Shown here piece by piece: positions 804 to 42,604 of a DNA stretch of 64,000 bases (its first letter is position 1; each line of letters begins with the position of its first letter). This stretch comes from a virus. Both the position numbers and the translations under genes were made by a program. The stretch covers positions 1 through 64,000 of the IMG/VR virus record IMGVR_UViG_3300044771_000012, one strand, 5' to 3'. Below the pieces are notes generated by a model that searched no databases, was not told the origin of the DNA, and saw only the letters and a list, made by a program, of their open reading frames with translations.

Positions 804-1094
804 ATGATTAAGTTGGGTGATTTGGTGAAAGACAAGTTGACGGAGTTTAAGGGAACCGCAATCGCACGAGCCGAATATCTTTATGGGTGCGTATGGGTCT
901 GCGTCGTTCCAAGGGGGTTACATGACGATAAACCCATTGAGGATGCCTGGTTCGATGAGGCGAGACTTGAAGTGGTTATCCAGAAAAATAGGGAGAAAAG
1001 GGAATTGTCATCGTCATTTAGAAGTTATGGAGGCCCGATGCCGAGCATTCCGAAAAGAAGTGTGCCTCATCCAAATAGTCACGACGAGAAGTAG
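804..1094 (+). CDS. hypothetical protein
   Basis: ATG at 804 lies 6 nt after GGAGG (794-798). It is an internal start of track ORF 750..1094. Confidence 0.6.
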   Translation: MIKLGDLVKDKLTEFKGTAIARAEYLYGCVWVCVVPRGLHDDKPIEDAWFDEARLEVVIQKNREKRELSSSFRSYGGPMPSIPKRSVPHPNSHDEK

Positions 1095-1104
1095 GGAGGA
1101 TTTT

Positions 1105-1596
1105 ATGCAACCATGTGATCGTTGTCATCAAGAATTTGAGAAAGTGATCGCTCAACCGGATGGTCAAAACTTTTGTCTCAACTGTCATCGAGGTTTGGGG
1201 CCGGAGATCACCGATGAGGAGTATAATCGTCTTCGCATGAATTATGACGATGTAGATTTCAGGCGACTTCGGCATCGTTTTTGGGCACTTGGTCTGAAAC
1301 GTCGGTATAATGTGCTCCGAACGATAGGGTATGTGAAGGAGGGGGAAACGTTGATCGAGAAGATCGAGCGTTTCAGGCTCTACAAGATTAAGGAAATGGG
1401 TCTTGATGGGGCACTCAAGGAGTCCATTGAGGAGCAGGAAGCGGAAATTTTGGCCGAGAACGAAAAATCCGATTATCTGGCTCCGAAAGAAGAGCCCAGG
1501 ATTGAACCCTCTGGCAGGGTTCATGTAGGAAGAGCCAATCTGAAACAGGGGCCTACGAATCCGAACCCGAATCCGTGGGAGGATAGTCAAAAATGA
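1105..1596 (+). CDS. zinc-ribbon protein (CxxC..CxxC), hypothetical
   Basis: ATG at 1105 after GGGAGG. N-terminus reads MQPCDRCHQEFEKVIAQPDGQNFCLNCH. Stop overlaps the next start (ATGA). Confidence 0.65.
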   Translation: MQPCDRCHQEFEKVIAQPDGQNFCLNCHRGLGPEITDEEYNRLRMNYDDVDFRRLRHRFWALGLKRRYNVLRTIGYVKEGETLIEKIERFRLYKIKEMGLDGALKESIEEQEAEILAENEKSDYLAPKEEPRIEPSGRVHVGRANLKQGPTNPNPNPWEDSQK

Positions 1597-2114
1597 ATCT
1601 TTGGGAAATCGGAAAGGCATACATCCGGCAATGGGTGAAAGGGATTGAGATCGTCGAGATCGTTCCGGGTCTTTTTCAATCGTCTGCGATTAGGTGGCCC
1701 TGGGACAAGGAGAAGGTCAAGGCCCTGGGCGAGAAGGTGGTTGTGATCGACCTTTCTGGACAATTTGATCCGTCGATGCCGTGGCTCGAAGGTTATCTCT
1801 ACTGGCCGATTAAGGATGAGGCGAAATTGCCGAACCTGGCAGTTCTCGAAGAAGTCGCCAGGTGGGGAATGAGGATGCGGGACTTAGGGTTTACGGTCTT
1901 GACCCATTGAACGGCGGGATTTAACCGTGGCGGTCTCGTCAACGGCATAATTTTAACGCTTACCGGAATTTCGGGCGGTGAGGCCCTGAGAATTATCAGA
2001 CAGAAGAGAACGGGGTCGTTATCGAACGTCACCTTTGCCGCCTTCCTTGCAACCGTTCCGGGGGCCGGGGCTCCGACATCATGGACAAGAAGGACGGATC
2101 GTGGGAAAAAGTAA
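1593..2114 (+). CDS. dual-specificity protein phosphatase (DSPc-like) with in-frame TGA at the catalytic Cys codon
   Basis: Track ORF 1593..1910 ends ...LGFTVLTH at TGA 1908-1910. The same frame continues TAGFNRGGLVNGIILTLTGISGGEALRIIRQKR... to TAA 2112-2114. This rebuilds an H-[TGA]-TAGFN-R (HCX5R) P-loop plus the downstream DSP helix pattern. Confidence 0.6.
1925..1945 (+). promoter_or_regulatory. RNA hairpin downstream of the in-frame UGA (candidate bacterial SECIS)
   Basis: CCGUGGCG-GUCU-CGUCA(A)CGG forms 8 bp with one bulged A. The apical GGUCU starts 22 nt after the UGA. Confidence 0.3.
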
Positions 2115-3048: not shown

Positions 3049-3282
3049 ATGCCAGAGAATAAATCATTTACAGACCAAAAACTCGAAGCGGAAATTAATC
3101 TTTTAAAGGCCGAGACGGAAAGGTGCAGGGCCGAAACTGAACGAATTAGGGCCGATGTTGAAAAAATCAGGGGCAATACCAGTAACGAATTCTCTGAATT
3201 TAAGGAATATGTTACAGGTTTTTTAAAGGGTGTAGATGGACGCATCTCTCTAATTGAGAAAAGCCATAAAGGAGATTTGTGA
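3049..3282 (+). CDS. coiled-coil protein, hypothetical
   Basis: GGGAGGAG RBS. Heptad-like repeats AETERCRAETERIRADVEKIR. Confidence 0.6.
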   Translation: MPENKSFTDQKLEAEINLLKAETERCRAETERIRADVEKIRGNTSNEFSEFKEYVTGFLKGVDGRISLIEKSHKGDL

Positions 3283-3737
3283 GAATAAAAAAACCCGGAC
3301 TCGCCAACGATGGATCAACCCTCATGGTATGTCGCCTGGGCGAACCCTGGGATAACCGACGGTATCTCACACAGGAAGAGATGAACCTTAAAAAGAGCGA
3401 CTTCCCGGAAGATGCCGTCTTTCTGATCGGAGGGAAAATGGAAGATAAAAGAATTACAGATTCACATATCGACGGCATCATGGAGAGGACAGATTTTATT
3501 GACCTCGTAGCCGTTCACGGGAAGACGACCATCGTTATCGCAAAACTCCCGAATGGGTTTGTCATCGTTGAATCGTCCTCGTGTGTCGATCCAAAAAATT
3601 ATAATCACGATCTCGGAGTCAAACTCTGCAAAGAGCGAATCCGGGATAAAATTTGGATGCTCGAAGGATACGTCCTTCAAATCATGGTGTCTGCCAAGAA
3701 CAACCTGATCGACAACGTGGAGTTGGCAAACCCATGA
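3279..3737 (+). CDS. Gp49-like protein (N4 gp49 / Sf6 gp66 family)
   Basis: C-terminal pattern TTIVIAKLPNGFVIVESSSCVDPKNYNHDLGVKLCKERIRDKIWMLEGYVLQ matches the family signature as I recall it. Start codon is uncertain (GTG 3279 or a downstream ATG). Confidence 0.65.
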   Translation: MRIKKPGLANDGSTLMVCRLGEPWDNRRYLTQEEMNLKKSDFPEDAVFLIGGKMEDKRITDSHIDGIMERTDFIDLVAVHGKTTIVIAKLPNGFVIVESSSCVDPKNYNHDLGVKLCKERIRDKIWMLEGYVLQIMVSAKNNLIDNVELANP

Positions 3738-31695: not shown

Positions 31696-34600
31696 ATGCC
31701 TGATCCGTTTTTGGATTATCTACATGAATCGGAATTGGGAAGGGGAACAATAGCAGGGACAACCTTGCCGCCGATGGAGGCCCCACAGGTTGCTTTTGCA
31801 AAGCCCTTGATAAGGCCAGCCGCACCTGCACCCACCGAAGAAGACCCTTTTCTTTCTCATATCCGGGGCCTTGAAACTACTCCTCCACCTTCACCGCCTC
31901 CTCAACGTGGAGTCCTGGGAGATATTGCTTCTTCTCTTGCTCGTGGCGTTGGAGTTGGTATCCCGCAATTCGCTGGCCAGGCGGTAACTGGTCTCGGAGC
32001 CCTGACCGGGATCGAACCGATGAAAGAAACGGGAAGAGCGATCACCGGATTTGCCGAAGCACTTCCCGAAAAAATTCCTTTCCTTCAACCCTCGGAGGCA
32101 GAGGGCCAGGGTGGGTTCAGACGTTTTCTTACAGGGATGGGAGAAAATCTTCCTACAATCCTGGCCGCCGCAAAGGGGGGAGCCGCCATTGGAGCTTTGA
32201 CTGCCCCCGTTACGGGTTTTCTTGGGCCGACCGCCGGTGCAATCCTTGGCGGCATGGTCGGAATTTTTGGAACGTTTGGCCTTGCCGGAAAGGGCCGGGC
32301 ATACGAAGAGGCTCTTTCTCAGGGTTTACCGGAAGACCAGGCCCAGATTTACTCGAACAAAATCGGGGCCATCGAAGGTGGAGTGTGGTCTCTTCTCGCT
32401 CCTGCGGAAGCCGTAACCGGAGGGATCGCAGGGAAATTTATTAAGAAGCCTGCGATTGATACCATCCGCAAACTTCTAACTCCGACCCTTACCCAAAGTC
32501 TCGCTGGCATGGCAACGAACGTTCCTCTTGTGACTGCCGCCGGTGCAACCTCCGCCGCACTTCAAGCCAGGGCCGCAGAGGAAGCTGGTATTCCAACTCC
32601 AACGCCGGAAGAAGCCGCTTATAATTCCATTGCTCCTTCGATTGGAATTTCGATCTTATTCGGCCTCGGAACACGGGCAATGAGATGGCAAGATCGAGGA
32701 GCGACCTTTGCTTCTTTAAAAAATGAGACCGTCGATCCTCAATTCAGACAGAATGCGGCATCAAGGGTTTTTGCAAATTTGAGAGCAATAGACCCGGAGA
32801 TCGCCCAGATGTGGAAACGAGAGGCTGATCTCAATATCCAGGCAAAGCGTCCAATCCCCATCGACGAAGATTACATGACCTGGTTATCAAGAAGTCAAAG
32901 AGAAAGGGTTCCTGCGATGTGGGGAACACAAGGAGCCGAACTTCCCATTCCTTATGCGGGTGAAGAAGCAAGGTATATGGGAAGGATGGCCCCGGAGGAG
33001 CCCGCCCAAATTCCATGGATAGAACCTCCTGGTGTCAAACGAGGAGAGGGTTTCGTCATGGCCGAACCATGGCTTGTGAGAGAAGGGGATCGAGGATATT
33101 TCCTACCCGCACCGGAAGCCATGAAGTTATTACCCGGCCCAGAAAAGGCAATACCTCAACTCCCGTATTATCCTCCTCCGGTAGGAACGACTCTCGGAGA
33201 GGGATTCAGGATGCAGGAGCCGGTTCAACCGAAAGTCTATGCCAGGGTCGCTCAGGATGCTTATCGAGAAGTGATGAGCATGGATGAGAATGGAAAACCG
33301 ATCCTTGGAGATAAAACCTTCAAGCGGTCTCAGATCGTGCCGAAAGAGGCAACGGTCAAGACCGGAAAGGGAAGAATTGCCCCCGAAGTGGGTGTTACCT
33401 CCGCCGGTGTCCTCCCCACCGAACGACCCTCACCACCTGCTCCGGGGGCCAAAATAACGCCTACGGCAAGAGAAGTGACCTCCACCCTTGCCCCTACCCC
33501 TGTTTTGCCTGAAAAGCCTGCCTTACCAGTTAAGGCTCCTCTGCCAGCCCCACAGATGGAAGCTATTCGTAACTATGGAGAGGAAATGAGCCAAACGGGG
33601 CAACCGGCAGGTTTGGGGATCGCAATGGTTCAACGGATCATCGGAAGTATGGGCGAGAAGGTTACAGCCAGGAAAGCGAAAGAGGCCATTGATTATCTCC
33701 ACGCCACGGGCGAGATCGAGCCCCAAGTTGGCGGAGGGACTGCGATGTTCGCCTATACCTTCACCGGGAAGACCCCAGAGAAGGCCCCGGTTCCTTTGCC
33801 GGAGGGGATCACTAAATACAAAAAAGATCATGGGTATCTGAAAACTGATACCGGATGGGAGGTTTATGGGCCAGAAGGAAAAATCGAGACAGCATCGTCA
33901 AGAGATGCGGCAAGAGCAACCATCGACCGGATTAAGTCCGGTGAAAAGCCACCTGCGGCGGTTCCACCGACTCCACCTATTACCCCGGCTCCGGCTCCTG
34001 GTGAACCGGCCATTCCCATTGCCGCTCGTGGAAGACCGGAAGAGGTTGTTACTCCAAAGGGTCTCAGGGCAGAAACGAGATTTAAGGTTGTTGAGGCTGA
34101 TAACCTGGTCACTTCAATCGACACTCAATTCAGGGAAAACCCGGCCTATAATCAAGAACTCCAACCCAGGGATCGAGACAAAGTAACCTCCATGAACCAG
34201 GTCATGCGGATTTATAATAAACTCGACCCAGAACAACTCGCAGAAAGTCGTGGAGCGGATACCGGGGCTCCAATCGTGGGGCCTGATAACATGGTCGAGT
34301 CTGGTAATGGTCGTGTAGTCGCAATGAAAAAACTTTATCAGGATGCCAATGCGAATGGAGAAAAATATAAGGCATGGCTCACCCAGAATGCAGAGAGGTT
34401 CGGCCTTACCAAAGAAGAGGTCTCCAATCTTAAAAATCCGATACTCGTAAGAGAGAATGCCACGCCGATGACGCCGGAAGAGCGAGTCGCTTTTGCGAGA
34501 GATGCGAACACTCCTACAACCCTGGTCATGTCCGCAGGCGAGAAGGCTAAGATCGACACGGATCGCTTGACGCCGGATGTCCTTTCTCTTTTTGCACCGG

Positions 34601-37600
34601 ATGAAAGTGGAAACCTCATGGCCGCCAGCAACCGGGAATTTATCCGCAGTTTTCTCGCTAAGATTCCGGCCAACGAGATGGGAGACTTCATCACCGAAAA
34701 GCCCGGTGCGATGGGAGCCGAAGCGAAACTCTCCGCTCAGGGACTCGCCAGAGTTAAGAACGCAATCTTCGCTAAAGCATACGGTAAGGAAAATGCAGAC
34801 CTCATCACCATGATGACGGAAGACCCAGAGAACAATATCAAAAATATCACAAACGCCCTTCTAACGGCGGCCCCGAAACAGGCCGTGTTGATGGATGCGA
34901 TAGCGAAGGGAAATCGCCACGATCTCTCAATCGCAAAGGAAATATCGGAGGCGGCTAAAACAATTTCCGATCTTCGGAATGCTGGAACGAATACGGAGGA
35001 GTATCTTCTTCAAGGAAATCTTTTCGGTAAAGACCCCATCGAAACAGAATTGGTGAAGATGTTCAATGATTGGAAGCAGGCCCCAAGGAAAATCATTGAC
35101 ATCCTCGATACCTATGCTAAAATGGTAGATGACGTTGGCAATCCAAAGCAGGGGGGCCTCTTTGGAGCCCAGAAGCCGCCATCCAAACTTGATATTTTGG
35201 AAGCGGCTCGAAAAGTAACCGAGGAAAAATATGTCACCCCCGAACAAAAAGGGTTATTCCCGCCCGAAATTCAACCAGTCGGTCGTGAACGAACTGGTGA
35301 GGCGATACAAGAAACTCCACCCGGAGGAATTCCCGAACCTGAGAAAGCCCCTGTCGAAGGGATTCCCGGTGAACCCACCCCAAAACCTGCCGCCGAGTTA
35401 GGCCCGCCGGAGTTTGATTACGAAAAGATGAGGAAACTCATCGACTCCGATCTTTTTCTAACACAAGAATTTAATAGATTACCCGGAACCCCAGAGAAAA
35501 AGGCAGAAGTGATATTCAACACATACGTTGCCGGGGATTCGGTGATGGAAAGAAATTATGAATCGGGCGGCGTCTCGAAAGCAATGTTCGAGGAGCCCGC
35601 CCCGATCACGGGCATGAAACTCGAAGGCGGGGTCTGGCCGCCATCGGAAGAAATTTGGTCGGCCTATGAAAAACTTGGCCAGGATGAATTCATTCGCCAG
35701 GCCGGGAAAATGGCATACGGGGAAAAGGGTTTTGTTCTTGCCAGAGAGATAGCGGAAGGGAACATCCCACCTGAATTGATGCAACGTGGCCCCAGGGGTA
35801 TGGCCCCAAAAGATGTCAATGAAGCGATCTTCGACATTAAAATTAAATGGAGAGATGCCCCGGATGTTGAAATCGTTCCCACCGAAAGAGACCTTCCTCC
35901 TGGTAAAAAACTTTACCCTGGGACAAAGGGTATCTTTGGCGATGATGGTAGGGTTTATCTCGTCGCTGAGAACCTGAAAAATCCCGGTGAAGCCAGAGAA
36001 GCAATTTTCCATGAGTCCGTTGGTCATTATGGTCTTCCAAAGATGATGGGGGATTCTTATTATGATCTTCTCCAAAGAGTTGTTCGTGACTTCCCAAAGG
36101 ACATTGCCGCCTTTGGAAAGAAGTATGGTTTTGACATGGATACCAATATCGGGAAGTGGAAGGCCGCAGAAGAGAAGATTGCCCAGGTTGCTCAAAAAGG
36201 AGATCATCCGGGTATCCTTAAAACTATGATCGCAACGATCAGGGATTGGATCAGTAAGGTTTTCCCTGGTCTGAAAATGACGGACAATGATATTCGCAAT
36301 CTCGTTCGGAAAGCATCGGAGCAAATGAAGAAAGGGGAAATCGGTTCTCCGGTTGATCCGATCAATGCTAAAATCGAAAATCTCCGCAGGCAGGTTGGCC
36401 ATCAAATCGGAGGAAATCCTAAACTCAAAGCCGGAGAGATGGGCCGCTATTGGCAAAACGAACCTTTCTTTATGATGGGCGAGAACGTGATGAGCGATGG
36501 TTCGTGGTGGGATTCGATCAAAAGTTTCCGTAATAAATATACCCTGGGGATCAAGGGAAACGATCTCAAGTGGTCTGAGCGGATGTATATGCTTCCATGG
36601 CACATCGCCCAAAAGTTTACGAACTTCCGAAAATTGATCGACGTTCAATTAAATCGAGATGAAGCTCGTGAGCAAATGAATCACGAGATGGTTCAAAAGG
36701 CATTTCCCGATAGTAAGAGCGAGGCCCATGAATTTCTCGCTTTACCGAAAGATCAATCCAATGATGTTTTTAGGGTGATGGTTTGGTCTGACGATCAAAA
36801 TCAATTTTTTGGTAGTGTCGGAAAGGGTGGAGAAATAAACCGGGATGTCGCTTCTCTTCAATCGAAAGCCAGAGAACTTCTTGGAAAAGACCTGAACGAA
36901 GATCAAGTCACGGCATATTACGCATGGAAACGAACCATGGATAGTGCGTGGGCAAGAGTCAGAAAACAGCACGAGGTAATGACTTTTGCTCCTTATGAAG
37001 ATCAACCATGGTATGAAGACCTAAAAAAATCATATACCGAATTCCTAAAAACTAAACAGAAAGGGTTGAGTTTTAAGGAATTCATCATTCAAGAGATGGA
37101 ACCGACCTTATTTAAACCCGGTGGAAAATATACTGATGCTCAATTAAAAGACTTGGGCCGTGCCGCAGATCGTCTCGAAAAACCGATTTCAAAACTGAAA
37201 GAACTTCGAGATGATATGGGGCGATGGAAATATTATGTCCCTCGTGTTCGGGATAAAGGCGACTATGTGATCCGTGGATTCGATGAAAACAATAACGTCG
37301 TTGTGAGTTTGAGGGCCAACGATCAAATTAGTGGAGCCAGGGTCAGGGATCGCTTTATGAAAGAATATACTGGCCTACGATGGGAATCAAAGTTTGAACC
37401 GCAACCCATTGAGGAGATGTTTCAGAAAGTTTCTGACATCCATCTCGAACAATTCATTAAGAAGGGAATTGATCGAGCACAAAGAAAAGAAACGATTAGC
37501 CCGGAAGATGCAGGTCATATTACCGATGCTCTCTTTGAAGCCGTGGCCGATGATCTCAAGGCCCGTGGGTTCGCTTCTCACTTTATCATGCGTGAAGAAG

Positions 37601-39189
37601 GAGCCGCCATTAAGGGTTATGAGACGCAGAATGGCCAGAAGGTTTTTATGGATTACATGACCGGCCTTTCTGGTTTCCTCACAAAACAGAGAGCGGCCTT
37701 TGATTTCTTTAAAGCACTCGAAGGGATTGATCCTTCCAAACAACCAGAGCTTTTCAAGGAGGGTTCTTCCTATGTCGAGGATATGCTCCGCAATACCGAC
37801 CGACTTGATAAACTTTCCGGCAAAATAAGAGCGGCGGCATTCACCTGGTATCTCTCTGGTTCGATCCGGGCGGCCATGGTGAATTTCACGCAAAACTTCG
37901 TTACGGGCGTTCCATTCCTGGGTCGGGTTACAAATAATCCACTTAAAAAGTATGTCCAGTCTATGAAGGACATTGCCGCTTATAAATTTAATCCCGCTCA
38001 TCTTTCCGCAGAGGAACAAAAGTTTCTCCATGAAATGCACGAAAAAGGTATTGATACCGCTCAATATCTGAGAGAAATCCGTGGCAGAATGAAAAGTCAA
38101 GTGGGAGGAACACTCGATCAGATTAGCCAGGTTCTTTCAGTCCCATTCTCCGGCATGGAGGTCTTTAACCGTGAATCCGCTTCGCTCGCCATGTTTCGTG
38201 TGATGAGAAACGAAAAGAATGCCTCCTATCAAGAAGCCTTCGATGCCGCCAGGGATTATGTTTACAATACCCATTATCTCTATGGGAAATCGAATCTTCC
38301 CGCCTGGGCCAGGGGTGGAACTCCTGGGAGCCGCCTGGTGAGGACAGCCTATACCTTCCGCAGTTTCAATCACAATTTCTTGCTTTCCCTGATGCAATCT
38401 CTCAAGGGGCCGGATGGGAAGATTAAGATTGACGTGATGGGCCGAACGCTGGCATGGCTGACAATCCTTGGTGGAGCAACTTCTATCCCTTTTATGGATG
38501 ATCTTCTTGATGGAATGGAAAAGATGACCGGCACTCCCTATAAATCAGACATGAGAAAAGCCCTCGCCGGTGTAGGGGGAGAAGTCCTTTCAAGATTTGG
38601 GATGGAAGGTTTACCGGCACTCCTTGGAACAACCCTTACTGGATCATTGAAACTTGGTCTTCCCACGATTAGCTCTTCCGATTTCTCAGGGGTTTATGGG
38701 GGAATGATCGACAAAGGGAAAAAGGCGATTCAGGCTTTTCAAAAACAAGATATCTATCGAGGTATCGAAAACTTAATGCCAACTTTTATTGAATCTCCAA
38801 TGAAGGCTTATCGGATGGCGACAGAAGGAGCCACGACCGCTCAGGGGAAAATCATGTTCGATGAGAAAGGCCAACCGATCAAACTTACAACCGGAGAAGC
38901 CATCGGTCAGGCCGCAGGTTTTAGACCCGAACGAACAGCGATTCTTTCAGAAGAAAAAAGATCGTTCCAAAATCTAACACAACATTATTCTGGCCAACGT
39001 GATGATCTCTATGCAAGAATCCGAATGGCAAAGGGAACAGATAGAACCAACGTTCTCAAGGAAATCAGAGATTACAACCTCGAAGTCCAAAAGTATAAAG
39101 GCGTCATCCCTCCTATCACACAAGAGATGATTCGGAATGCGTTGAAGCAAAAACCTGAGAAAAAATTCATAAGGTTTGAAAATAGATAG
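31696..39189 (+). CDS. giant multidomain (polyvalent-type) protein, 2497 aa
   Basis: Uninterrupted 7.5-kb ORF. It has a ParB/sulfiredoxin-like segment (ELQPRDRDK...GAPIVGPDNMVESGNGRVVAMKKLY, about nt 34150-34340), the motif AIFHESVGHYGLP (nt 36001-36039), Pro-rich linkers and a hydrophobic/Gly-rich C-terminal third. Confidence 0.8.
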   Translation: MPDPFLDYLHESELGRGTIAGTTLPPMEAPQVAFAKPLIRPAAPAPTEEDPFLSHIRGLETTPPPSPPPQRGVLGDIASSLARGVGVGIPQFAGQAVTGLGALTGIEPMKETGRAITGFAEALPEKIPFLQPSEAEGQGGFRRFLTGMGENLPTILAAAKGGAAIGALTAPVTGFLGPTAGAILGGMVGIFGTFGLAGKGRAYEEALSQGLPEDQAQIYSNKIGAIEGGVWSLLAPAEAVTGGIAGKFIKKPAIDTIRKLLTPTLTQSLAGMATNVPLVTAAGATSAALQARAAEEAGIPTPTPEEAAYNSIAPSIGISILFGLGTRAMRWQDRGATFASLKNETVDPQFRQNAASRVFANLRAIDPEIAQMWKREADLNIQAKRPIPIDEDYMTWLSRSQRERVPAMWGTQGAELPIPYAGEEARYMGRMAPEEPAQIPWIEPPGVKRGEGFVMAEPWLVREGDRGYFLPAPEAMKLLPGPEKAIPQLPYYPPPVGTTLGEGFRMQEPVQPKVYARVAQDAYREVMSMDENGKPILGDKTFKRSQIVPKEATVKTGKGRIAPEVGVTSAGVLPTERPSPPAPGAKITPTAREVTSTLAPTPVLPEKPALPVKAPLPAPQMEAIRNYGEEMSQTGQPAGLGIAMVQRIIGSMGEKVTARKAKEAIDYLHATGEIEPQVGGGTAMFAYTFTGKTPEKAPVPLPEGITKYKKDHGYLKTDTGWEVYGPEGKIETASSRDAARATIDRIKSGEKPPAAVPPTPPITPAPAPGEPAIPIAARGRPEEVVTPKGLRAETRFKVVEADNLVTSIDTQFRENPAYNQELQPRDRDKVTSMNQVMRIYNKLDPEQLAESRGADTGAPIVGPDNMVESGNGRVVAMKKLYQDANANGEKYKAWLTQNAERFGLTKEEVSNLKNPILVRENATPMTPEERVAFARDANTPTTLVMSAGEKAKIDTDRLTPDVLSLFAPDESGNLMAASNREFIRSFLAKIPANEMGDFITEKPGAMGAEAKLSAQGLARVKNAIFAKAYGKENADLITMMTEDPENNIKNITNALLTAAPKQAVLMDAIAKGNRHDLSIAKEISEAAKTISDLRNAGTNTEEYLLQGNLFGKDPIETELVKMFNDWKQAPRKIIDILDTYAKMVDDVGNPKQGGLFGAQKPPSKLDILEAARKVTEEKYVTPEQKGLFPPEIQPVGRERTGEAIQETPPGGIPEPEKAPVEGIPGEPTPKPAAELGPPEFDYEKMRKLIDSDLFLTQEFNRLPGTPEKKAEVIFNTYVAGDSVMERNYESGGVSKAMFEEPAPITGMKLEGGVWPPSEEIWSAYEKLGQDEFIRQAGKMAYGEKGFVLAREIAEGNIPPELMQRGPRGMAPKDVNEAIFDIKIKWRDAPDVEIVPTERDLPPGKKLYPGTKGIFGDDGRVYLVAENLKNPGEAREAIFHESVGHYGLPKMMGDSYYDLLQRVVRDFPKDIAAFGKKYGFDMDTNIGKWKAAEEKIAQVAQKGDHPGILKTMIATIRDWISKVFPGLKMTDNDIRNLVRKASEQMKKGEIGSPVDPINAKIENLRRQVGHQIGGNPKLKAGEMGRYWQNEPFFMMGENVMSDGSWWDSIKSFRNKYTLGIKGNDLKWSERMYMLPWHIAQKFTNFRKLIDVQLNRDEAREQMNHEMVQKAFPDSKSEAHEFLALPKDQSNDVFRVMVWSDDQNQFFGSVGKGGEINRDVASLQSKARELLGKDLNEDQVTAYYAWKRTMDSAWARVRKQHEVMTFAPYEDQPWYEDLKKSYTEFLKTKQKGLSFKEFIIQEMEPTLFKPGGKYTDAQLKDLGRAADRLEKPISKLKELRDDMGRWKYYVPRVRDKGDYVIRGFDENNNVVVSLRANDQISGARVRDRFMKEYTGLRWESKFEPQPIEEMFQKVSDIHLEQFIKKGIDRAQRKETISPEDAGHITDALFEAVADDLKARGFASHFIMREEGAAIKGYETQNGQKVFMDYMTGLSGFLTKQRAAFDFFKALEGIDPSKQPELFKEGSSYVEDMLRNTDRLDKLSGKIRAAAFTWYLSGSIRAAMVNFTQNFVTGVPFLGRVTNNPLKKYVQSMKDIAAYKFNPAHLSAEEQKFLHEMHEKGIDTAQYLREIRGRMKSQVGGTLDQISQVLSVPFSGMEVFNRESASLAMFRVMRNEKNASYQEAFDAARDYVYNTHYLYGKSNLPAWARGGTPGSRLVRTAYTFRSFNHNFLLSLMQSLKGPDGKIKIDVMGRTLAWLTILGGATSIPFMDDLLDGMEKMTGTPYKSDMRKALAGVGGEVLSRFGMEGLPALLGTTLTGSLKLGLPTISSSDFSGVYGGMIDKGKKAIQAFQKQDIYRGIENLMPTFIESPMKAYRMATEGATTAQGKIMFDEKGQPIKLTTGEAIGQAAGFRPERTAILSEEKRSFQNLTQHYSGQRDDLYARIRMAKGTDRTNVLKEIRDYNLEVQKYKGVIPPITQEMIRNALKQKPEKKFIRFENR

Positions 39190-42533: not shown

Positions 42534-42604
42534 CGTTTGCTCTAACCTACTGAGCTACCCCCCCATAAGTGGGGGGGGAAGGAGTCGAACCTCCGCACAA
42601 ACGC
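42534..42604 (-). ncRNA. circularly permuted tRNA-like element (3' half, 5-nt linker, 5' half)
   Basis: The minus strand reads GCGTT-TGTGC-GGAGG-TTCGACT-CCTTC-CCCCCCC-A (42604..42570), then CTTAT, then GGGGGGG-TA-GCTC-AGTAGGTTA-GAGC-A-AACGC (42564..42534). All stems are complementary. T8, A14, G18G19, T54T55C56, A58 and G53-C61 are present. No 7-nt anticodon loop can be formed. Confidence 0.6.

Follow-up and report, generated by a model that had tools for sequence, protein, structure and literature searches.

A tailed-phage phosphatase gene with UGA at its catalytic cysteine codon is a candidate for selenocysteine recoding

An interrupted phosphatase gene

The subject of this analysis is a 64,000-nucleotide stretch of viral DNA (IMG/VR record IMGVR_UViG_3300044771_000012, positions 1 to 64,000; in the following simply the window) and, within it, a putative phosphatase gene at 1593-2114 in which TGA takes the place of the codon for the catalytic cysteine (Cys). 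Recoding of UGA directed by a selenocysteine insertion sequence (SECIS) is well known, and a first-pass annotation of the window had pointed to this gene as a possible case of selenocysteine (Sec) incorporation. The open reading frame (ORF) starts at ATG 1593 and stops after 105 codons at TGA 1908-1910, and past this codon another 67 sense codons follow in frame before TAA 2112-2114 is reached; both boundaries were confirmed in the sequence. Read across the stop, the frame gives ...KVLTH-[TGA]-TAGFNRGGLVNG..., an H-[TGA]-X5-R pattern which, as had been noticed initially, puts TGA in the place of the nucleophile of the HCX5R phosphate-binding loop (P-loop). The second part (1911..2111) has neither a start codon nor a ribosome-binding site of its own, and in gene-caller annotation the N-terminal part alone appears as a protein of 104-105 amino acids. 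The features of the locus, including those of the proposed recoding, are the following:

1593..2114, plus strand: the whole recoded gene, consisting of 105 codons, UGA, 67 codons and TAA; a predicted 173-amino-acid phosphatase of the dual-specificity/protein tyrosine phosphatase (DSP/PTP) fold, with Sec at residue 106
1593..1907, plus strand: N-terminal part, residues 1-105, with the beta-sheet core and the WPIKD loop that holds the putative general-acid Asp75
1908..1910, plus strand: UGA at the catalytic nucleophile of the H-C/U-X5-R P-loop, the proposed Sec codon
1911..2111, plus strand: C-terminal part, whose 67 codons complete the P-loop (TAGFNRGG) and supply three DSP-domain helices
1925..1945, plus strand: SECIS-like hairpin within the coding sequence, apical loop GUCU at 1933-1936
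2112..2114, plus strand: TAA, the true stop of the recoded gene
883..1596, plus strand: upstream gene of 237 amino acids without a family match, whose TGA stop overlaps the phosphatase ATG (ATGA 1593-1596)

The joined product as a PTP/DSP-fold phosphatase

A phosphatase family was matched by the joined sequence only, and either half alone matched none. Regarding the fold that had been proposed for the joined protein, the comparison with DSPc gave a match with E=1.2e-4, but its 22.3 bits lie under the Pfam gathering cut-off of 33.5. In the full-length homologues, PF00782 is present among the precomputed Pfam matches. A sequence search of the PDB with the joined protein returned the archaeal phosphatase Tk-PTP, PRL phosphatases and DUSP22 at E values of about 5e-6; in the alignments the TGA column falls on the catalytic Cys of these PTP, PRL and DUSP22 matches, and the P-loop falls on their HCxAGxxR. 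When a profile of the family was compared with the PDB, 76 PTP/DSP sequences were matched, the best with E=4e-11. A weak but significant match was also found to PHROG 10650, which comprises phage dual-specificity phosphatases (E=1.5e-6).

The aspartate of the WPIKD loop, Asp75, aligns with the PIPD Asp of Tk-PTP (5z5b) and is invariant in 19 of 19 family members. Lying about 30 residues before the nucleophile, it is the putative general acid.

As structural model we used P0003, a Cys-form proxy that is 71% identical and stands in for the window protein. Its AlphaFold2 model (predicted local distance difference test, pLDDT, 83; predicted template modelling score, pTM, 0.79) was submitted to Foldseek, and the top matches were DUSP5, MKP5, Tk-PTP and DUSP28, with a probability of 1.0 and template modelling (TM) scores of 0.65-0.78. 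In this model the recoded position is located in the P-loop, between the strand 102-105 and the helix 110-123, so that a product ending at TGA would be without the P-loop and the three helices. By homology and by this model, the joined 173-residue product is predicted to be a phosphatase of the PTP/DSP fold.

The residue behind the P-loop Arg differs between forms. It is Gly in the TGA clade to which the window belongs and Ser in the Cys relatives of this clade, and it is Ala both in the other TGA clades and in their Cys relatives. The exchange of Ser to Gly may be a chemical adaptation to Sec, but the position of its GGC codon in the 5' arm of the hairpin would be the simpler explanation.

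TGA and Cys forms among relatives

With the joined sequence as query, a search among proteins led to 13 Cys-type proteins of full length, 143-181 amino acids, with the motif HCT(A/G)G(F/Y)NRSG (P0001-P0010, P0012, P0015 and P0018), together with five short entries of 104-108 amino acids, each ending in ...VL(T/I)H (P0011, P0013, P0014, P0016 and P0017). The DNA of all five short entries has TGA at the Cys codon, followed by 63-103 more open codons, and these continued frames encode the remainder of the domain with amino-acid substitutions. An exhaustive comparison of the N-terminal part with 1.84 billion representatives detected five more truncated entries at 42-52% identity. Their DNA again has TGA at the Cys codon, here followed by 49-60 open codons, while the other two frames are stop-rich, and the downstream peptide reads xxGxNRAxLVxG...RPGAL(S/T)N..F..YL.

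Thus, the pairing of Cys and TGA at a single column, which had been suspected from the window alone, was found among its homologues. TGA occupies the catalytic column in 11 distinct lineages whose proteins are 42-94% identical; they are represented by 20 contigs from independent JGI, ENA, Logan and NCBI assemblies. Cys, encoded by TGC or TGT, occupies it in 33 of 35 full-length relatives, the two others having Trp and Ser. Two further searches gave negative results: exact occurrences of the TGA-plus-hairpin sequence were sought in IMG/VR without a match, and tblastn against 50,697 isolated-phage records detected no relative of the phosphatase.

In a neighbour-joining tree the TGA forms are found in at least four places, each time beside Cys-type relatives. 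One such neighbourhood could be followed at the DNA level within a single sample, in which L018 (identical to L012, IMG/VR UViG_3300032156_000816) is a Cys form and L009 a TGA form. Their DNA identity is 98% where the gene begins and 84-94% towards its 3' end, but it falls to 47-60% over most of the central ~65 codons and is 76% in the 15 P-loop codons. To judge from this profile, the pair looks like a swap of the active-site Sec/Cys cassette by recombination, and cassettes of the Sec type and the Cys type appear to have been exchanged repeatedly between near-identical phage genes.

Some members of the family deviate from both forms. The two exceptions at the catalytic column are distant members, P0026 with Trp (HW; its TGG is one step from TGA) and P0044 with Ser (HS), and they may be inactive or pseudo-phosphatase derivatives. 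P0019 (233 amino acids, ENA) consists of the first 57 residues of a Cys-type phosphatase followed first by unrelated sequence and then by a homologue of the window ORF 3279-3737 (Phage_gp49_66 family). It is a deletion remnant, which shows that the phosphatase gene is dispensable in some relatives. In the case of L010:1504-2142, the usual stop of the phosphatase is absent and 103 codons follow the TGA, running into a hydrophobic membrane-like tail which the gene caller annotated as a separate 78-residue gene.

Selection downstream of the TGA

Within the window's clade, pairwise synonymous divergence (dS) amounts to 0.8-1.5 in the N-terminal part and to 0.3-1.1 in the C-terminal part, values high enough to indicate that the lineages are old relative to neutral decay. 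For three phylogenetically independent pairs, the ratio of the proportions of nonsynonymous and synonymous changes (pN/pS) was 0.14 before the TGA and 0.30 after it (binomial p=3e-7). The latter value derives from 35 nonsynonymous and 41 synonymous changes, as compared to a neutral expectation of 74% nonsynonymous.

Scattered stops or frameshifts in relatives had been named beforehand as the mark of a decaying gene. None occurs in the 49-103 downstream codons of any TGA lineage, and the downstream part is under purifying selection. This pattern of substitutions indicates that the part after the TGA is translated.

A hairpin at a fixed distance from the UGA

The hairpin that had been recognized behind the TGA could be reproduced at 1925-1945 as CCGUGGCG-GUCU-CGUCA(A)CGG, with 8 bp and one bulged A. 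Its folding energy is -8.5 kcal/mol, with a z-score of -3.05 against dinucleotide shuffles, and its loop begins 22 nt from the UGA. The published model of bacterial SECIS elements (bSECIS) has an apical loop of 3-9 nt, an upper stem of 4-16 bp, a G in the first two loop positions, a distance of 16-37 nt from UGA to loop and a minimum free energy of at most -7.5 kcal/mol (PMC13188914). The window's hairpin lies within these limits in every respect (GUCU, 8 bp, 22 nt, -8.5 kcal/mol).

The same comparison separates the two forms of the gene. All 11 TGA forms pass the bSECIS criteria; the distance from UGA to the start of the loop is 22 nt in ten forms and 21 nt in the remaining one, and in 10 of the 11 the loop begins with GU (positions 26-27). 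Among the Cys forms only 4 of 12 pass, at spacings of 18, 30, 36 and 37 nt, and none of the 12 has a hairpin at 21-22 nt. The difference at this spacing corresponds to a Fisher p=7e-7, or to ~5e-5 when six distinct hairpin types are counted.

At the codon level, none of the seven hairpin codons (AAC CGT GGC GGT CTC GTC AAC) is synonymously variable among six lineages of the window's clade, whereas 60 of the 84 amino-acid-invariant codon columns in the rest of the gene are (Fisher p=3e-4). The hairpin stretch is the longest invariant run of the gene in this clade, and variation resumes directly beyond the stem, at the third base of the Gly codon that follows. In the Cys forms the corresponding residues N-R-x-G-L-V-N are written with 2-3 different codons per column.

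In five distant TGA lineages a hairpin is found in the same place, built from other stem sequences:

Distant TGA-lineage hairpin: CCGCGCCA-GUCUGG-UGGCGGG
Distant TGA-lineage hairpin: CCGUGCCA-GUU-UGGUCACGG
Distant TGA-lineage hairpin: CCGGGCCA-GUC-UGGUCACGG
Distant TGA-lineage hairpin: CCGUGCCA-GUU-UGGUAAACGG
Distant TGA-lineage hairpin: CCGGGCC-GGGCU-GGUCAUGG

The stems are of the type GCCA/UGG(U/C) in L028, L029, L030 and L031 and GCC/GGU in L034, as against GGCG/CGUC in the window's hairpin. Across clades the hairpins were compared by folding each sequence separately and by a null model of synonymous recoding, in which, for each of seven TGA forms, the codons of the 15 residues after the UGA were resampled 400 times. 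A hairpin as good as the natural one, and in the same position, arose in 0-1.25% of the recodings per TGA form, and in 0 of 400 in the case of the window. Because such recodings almost never give the hairpin, the peptide sequence does not account for the structure. With the frozen synonymous sites and the differing stems, this result indicates that selection maintains the hairpin.

As to covariation, which had been put forward as a further test of the hairpin, the same-column kind is absent in the window's clade, where the hairpin is invariant also at synonymous sites; elsewhere the hairpin is formed by other stems. RNAalifold on the TGA forms of the window's clade found no compensatory pairs, because the hairpin is invariant within that clade. 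Across clades, RNAalifold on the ungapped coding alignment found no consensus hairpin, because the stems sit in different registers.

Genetic code, Sec machinery and host

The window belongs to a tailed phage, with a large terminase, a portal of SU10 type and its adaptor, a capsid protein, RecT and a topoisomerase-like protein. It uses the standard code, and, as had been stated from the start, TGA is an ordinary stop elsewhere in its genome. Of 37 clear genes, 13 terminate in TGA, frequently within an ATGA or GTGA overlap. One such overlap is the ATGA at 1593-1596, whose TGA acts as a normal terminator 312 nt upstream of the recoded TGA. The codon is absent from ~11,000 codons of long ORFs, including one of 2497 amino acids. 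Since TGA is a normal stop in this phage, any recoding must be site-specific. A survey of the window for other recoded genes revealed 93 TGA-split frames, 13 of which pass the loose hairpin criteria; besides the one at 1908, none of these is in the frame of a plausible gene.

The sole canonical tRNA in the window is a tRNA-Asn, which is also the sole Rfam match at the gathering threshold. As for the host, a search over genome contigs found only distant DSPs (31-38%) in metagenome-assembled genomes of Actinomycetota, and in isolated phages only structural or replication proteins of ~28-48% identity were found, from mixed hosts.

Proposed mechanism and its alternatives

Taken together, we consider it very likely, on the basis of these sequence comparisons, that the gene at 1593-2114 encodes a single 173-residue phosphatase of the Cys-based fold, the nucleophile of which is a Sec translated from UGA 1908-1910. 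Site-specific recoding of UGA to Sec at the catalytic Cys, as the first-pass annotation had proposed, is supported by the comparisons of lineages, of selection and of hairpins alike, and, judged in silico, the usual hallmarks of a bacterial selenoprotein are all found: a conserved UGA, Cys homologues, a conserved ORF and, at a suitable distance, a conserved hairpin of SECIS type.

The following course of events is proposed. Provided that the bacterial host is Sec-competent, SelB loaded with GTP and Sec-tRNA(Sec) would bind to the hairpin 1925-1945 inside the ORF, which would present a G-U at the 5' side of its loop, 22 nt past the UGA. SelB would deliver Sec once the UGA enters the ribosomal A site, and translation would then proceed through the 67 codons to TAA. 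In the enzyme, the selenolate of the P-loop H-U-T-A-G-F-N-R would attack the substrate phosphate to form a seleno-phosphoenzyme intermediate, with Asp75 of the WPIKD loop as general acid, so that catalysis would be like that of any HCX5R phosphatase. Without Sec machinery or selenium, ribosomes would stop at the UGA and leave an inactive fragment of 105 amino acids; enzyme activity is thus proposed to depend on the selenium status of the host. More generally, tailed phages of sediments and other environments probably make a PTP/DSP with a Sec nucleophile by way of the host's SelB and tRNA-Sec, hijacked through a SECIS of the phage.

Several observations weigh against Sec recoding. The Pfam DSPc (PF00782) score of the window protein is, as given above, below the gathering threshold. 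Neither the window nor related loci yielded a tRNA-Sec, and no SelA, SelB or SelD domains were detected in the large ORFs scanned in the window and related contigs. The neighbour-joining tree was made without bootstrap, and the TGA lineages are not all phylogenetically independent. Regarding the hairpin, the region 1850-2050 had no Rfam SECIS match even at E values up to 10. The bacterial SECIS models of Rfam are family-specific, and an absent match is weak negative evidence. The bSECIS criteria are permissive in that 13 of the 93 TGA-split frames of the window pass them (a background of ~14%), so that the significance of the hairpin rests on the comparative data and not on the single sequence. 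Same-column compensatory covariation could not be scored, as the stem registers differ between clades. Finally, the distance from UGA to loop is one codon longer than that of E. coli fdhF. In fdhF, the loop G-U is at G23U24, as compared to G26U27 here. The displacement by one codon, which had been pointed out in the first-pass annotation, holds on these fdhF positions and still leaves the loop within 16-37 nt. With a spacing one codon beyond that of fdhF, E. coli SelB may not be the right partner.

Among the alternatives, the one that survives best is readthrough independent of SelB, in which the hairpin would stimulate a near-cognate tRNA (Trp, Cys or Arg) at the UGA, giving mainly truncated protein and, in a small share, a full-length product without selenium. 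In principle, a hairpin conserved behind the stop could be such a stimulator, no Sec machinery was found on the phage, and the distant relative P0026 has Trp at the catalytic column. UGA followed by A is, furthermore, not the strongest termination context. However, the codon lies exactly at the nucleophile, where Trp or Arg would mean a dead enzyme, and yet the C-terminal domain is under purifying selection. Homologues with Cys at that column form the classical Sec/Cys signature, and a generic readthrough mechanism has no need of a loop of bSECIS size, a G-U start or a fixed spacing of 21-22 nt. We thus regard this explanation as improbable.

Still less probable is a regulatory split, in which the TGA would be a true stop, the N-terminal fragment would have a non-catalytic function of its own, and the hairpin would be a site of RNA processing or of binding by a phage protein, with the downstream region conserved at the RNA level. 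The missing Rfam SECIS match and the fact that binding of the hairpin by SelB is only proposed speak for it. Conservation at the RNA level would not, however, yield a pN/pS of 0.3 over 67 codons, and the residues kept are catalytic or structural ones of DSPs (G109, N111, R112, L115, V116, R136, G141, L143, N145 and F148). In addition, the 105-residue fragment would be without the P-loop and three core helices, and the C-terminal part has no start codon.

We give very little credence to a pseudogene, that is, to a Cys-to-stop knockout so recent that the downstream frame is still intact. From a single sequence this could not be excluded, gene callers give only the fragment of 104-105 amino acids, and in P0019 a Cys-type copy has indeed decayed by deletion. 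However, this possibility, raised in the first-pass annotation itself, is contradicted by the recurrence of the same TGA in 11 lineages, among which identity falls to 42% and dS comes close to saturation, by downstream frames that are intact everywhere with a pN/pS of 0.30 (p=3e-7), and by the co-conserved RNA structure. That the contigs are chimeric copies of a single sequence is excluded by their divergence.

Similarly negligible is the probability of an alternative code that would have TGA read as an amino acid throughout the genome (Trp in code 4, Gly in code 25). Reassignment of stop codons does occur in some phages and hosts; here, however, 13 of 37 clear genes end in TGA, long ORFs are free of it, no in-frame TGA was seen at conserved Trp or Gly columns of other genes, no suppressor tRNA was found, and Gly or Trp as nucleophile would inactivate the enzyme. 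That 1908-1910 in truth reads TGY and was altered by faulty sequencing or assembly, suggested by nothing but its general possibility, is the least credible explanation of all, the base call having proved genuine through the identical TGA on 20 independently assembled contigs.

Relation to known systems

Having named these alternatives, we return to Sec recoding and its place among known systems. Like bacterial selenoprotein genes such as E. coli fdhF, the phage gene has its UGA at a catalytic Cys column and a stem-loop inside the coding sequence, with an apical loop of 3-9 nt beginning in G[G/U]; unlike them, it is carried by a phage and not by a cellular genome. The apical GGUCU and the reading frame GGU-CUN also resemble those of fdhF. 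With the Cys-based PTP superfamily (DUSP5, MKP5, DUSP22, VHR, PRL and Tk-PTP) it shares the fold, the H-C-X5-R P-loop and the Asp loop, but it differs in the UGA codon of the nucleophile and in being a short single-domain phage protein. As PHROG 10650 shows, phosphatases of DSP type are a known accessory function of phages, for which the use of Sec is not reported. To our knowledge, almost all known selenoproteins are redox enzymes.

In the case of viruses, the only selenoproteins listed in a review of viral recoding are two glutathione peroxidase (GPx) genes of poxviruses, those of molluscum contagiosum and fowlpox (PMC8310308). These are likewise virus-encoded and rely entirely on the Sec machinery of the host, and in fowlpox, too, the SECIS is situated within the coding sequence (PMC8310308). 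They differ in that they are host-captured redox enzymes of eukaryotic viruses with a eukaryotic-type SECIS, whereas the gene described here would combine a tailed bacteriophage, a bacterial-type SECIS and a hydrolytic enzyme. A 2026 review of more than 110 prokaryotic selenoprotein families mentions neither phosphatases and PTPs nor phages and viruses (PMC13188914), and in the Global Ocean Sampling (GOS) selenoproteome paper the sole mention of a phosphatase is a PP2C domain fused to a Sec-peroxiredoxin. NCBIfam, with its many curated selenoprotein models, gave no match to the phage phosphatase. The initial impression that neither a phage selenoprotein nor a Sec-dependent phosphatase of the PTP fold had been described agrees with the literature searched, within the limits of that library. 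The decoding mechanism itself would be the known bacterial one; it is the phage carrier and the enzyme class that appear undescribed. Judged by its conserved UGA and hairpin, the gene is a strong candidate in two respects, as the first selenoprotein known from a phage and as the first natural Sec-dependent phosphatase.

If this is true, a selenolate would act in phosphoryl transfer, in hydrolytic instead of redox chemistry. The family would then offer a natural test of Sec against the low-pKa Cys of PTPs, for instance regarding a faster breakdown of the intermediate or a resistance to irreversible oxidation. The phages would depend on an optional translation pathway of their hosts, which would constrain host range and make expression selenium-dependent. 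Phage gene expression would be tied to host selenium metabolism, and the gene would serve as a sequence-level marker of a Sec-competent host. It would also be a motive to seek genes with in-frame UGA in viral metagenomes, where they are now annotated as fragments of 104 amino acids, and the compact natural SECIS variants over a defined peptide motif could be of use in engineering.

tRNA-like genes and other features of the window

Three tRNA-like sequences (L002:443-527, L031:4982-5063 and window 42535-42602) were considered as candidates for tRNA-Sec and rejected, as none has a UCA anticodon. The first, on the plus strand of a sister phage, is a tRNA-like gene (Rfam tRNA 42 bits; 'tRNA-???' in ARAGORN) ~780 nt upstream of that phage's TGA-phosphatase. 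It has a long variable arm and an apparent 8-bp acceptor and 5-bp T stem, but its anticodon arm is cut to a 4-nt loop and hence has no anticodon. In its place the window has an unrelated insert of ~140 nt at 620-760. The second, on the minus strand of L031, is an 82-nt tRNA (Rfam 50.5 bits) missed by ARAGORN, with 21 nt against 9 in the anticodon region of the model; it lies ~220 nt downstream of the TGA-phosphatase of L031.

Apart from these, the window begins with ~880 nt (1-880) without a convincing ORF, before the block of plus-strand genes; this region may be regulatory or related to integration. The ORF of 2497 amino acids is a single frame at 31696-39189 on the plus strand, within the structural module, and presumably encodes a giant tail or virion protein. 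On the minus strand, the third of the tRNA-like sequences, at 42535-42602, is a permuted module ~190 nt upstream of the tRNA-Asn, in which a T-arm (GGAGGTTCGACTCCTTC) is followed by a C7/G7 stem and then by a D-arm (TAGCTCAGTAGGTTAGAGC). It matches YrlA, a bacterial Y-RNA-like family, in part (32.7 bits, E=2.6e-5, as against a gathering score of 69), and the phage may thereby encode an RNA that is Y-RNA-like or mimics a tRNA.

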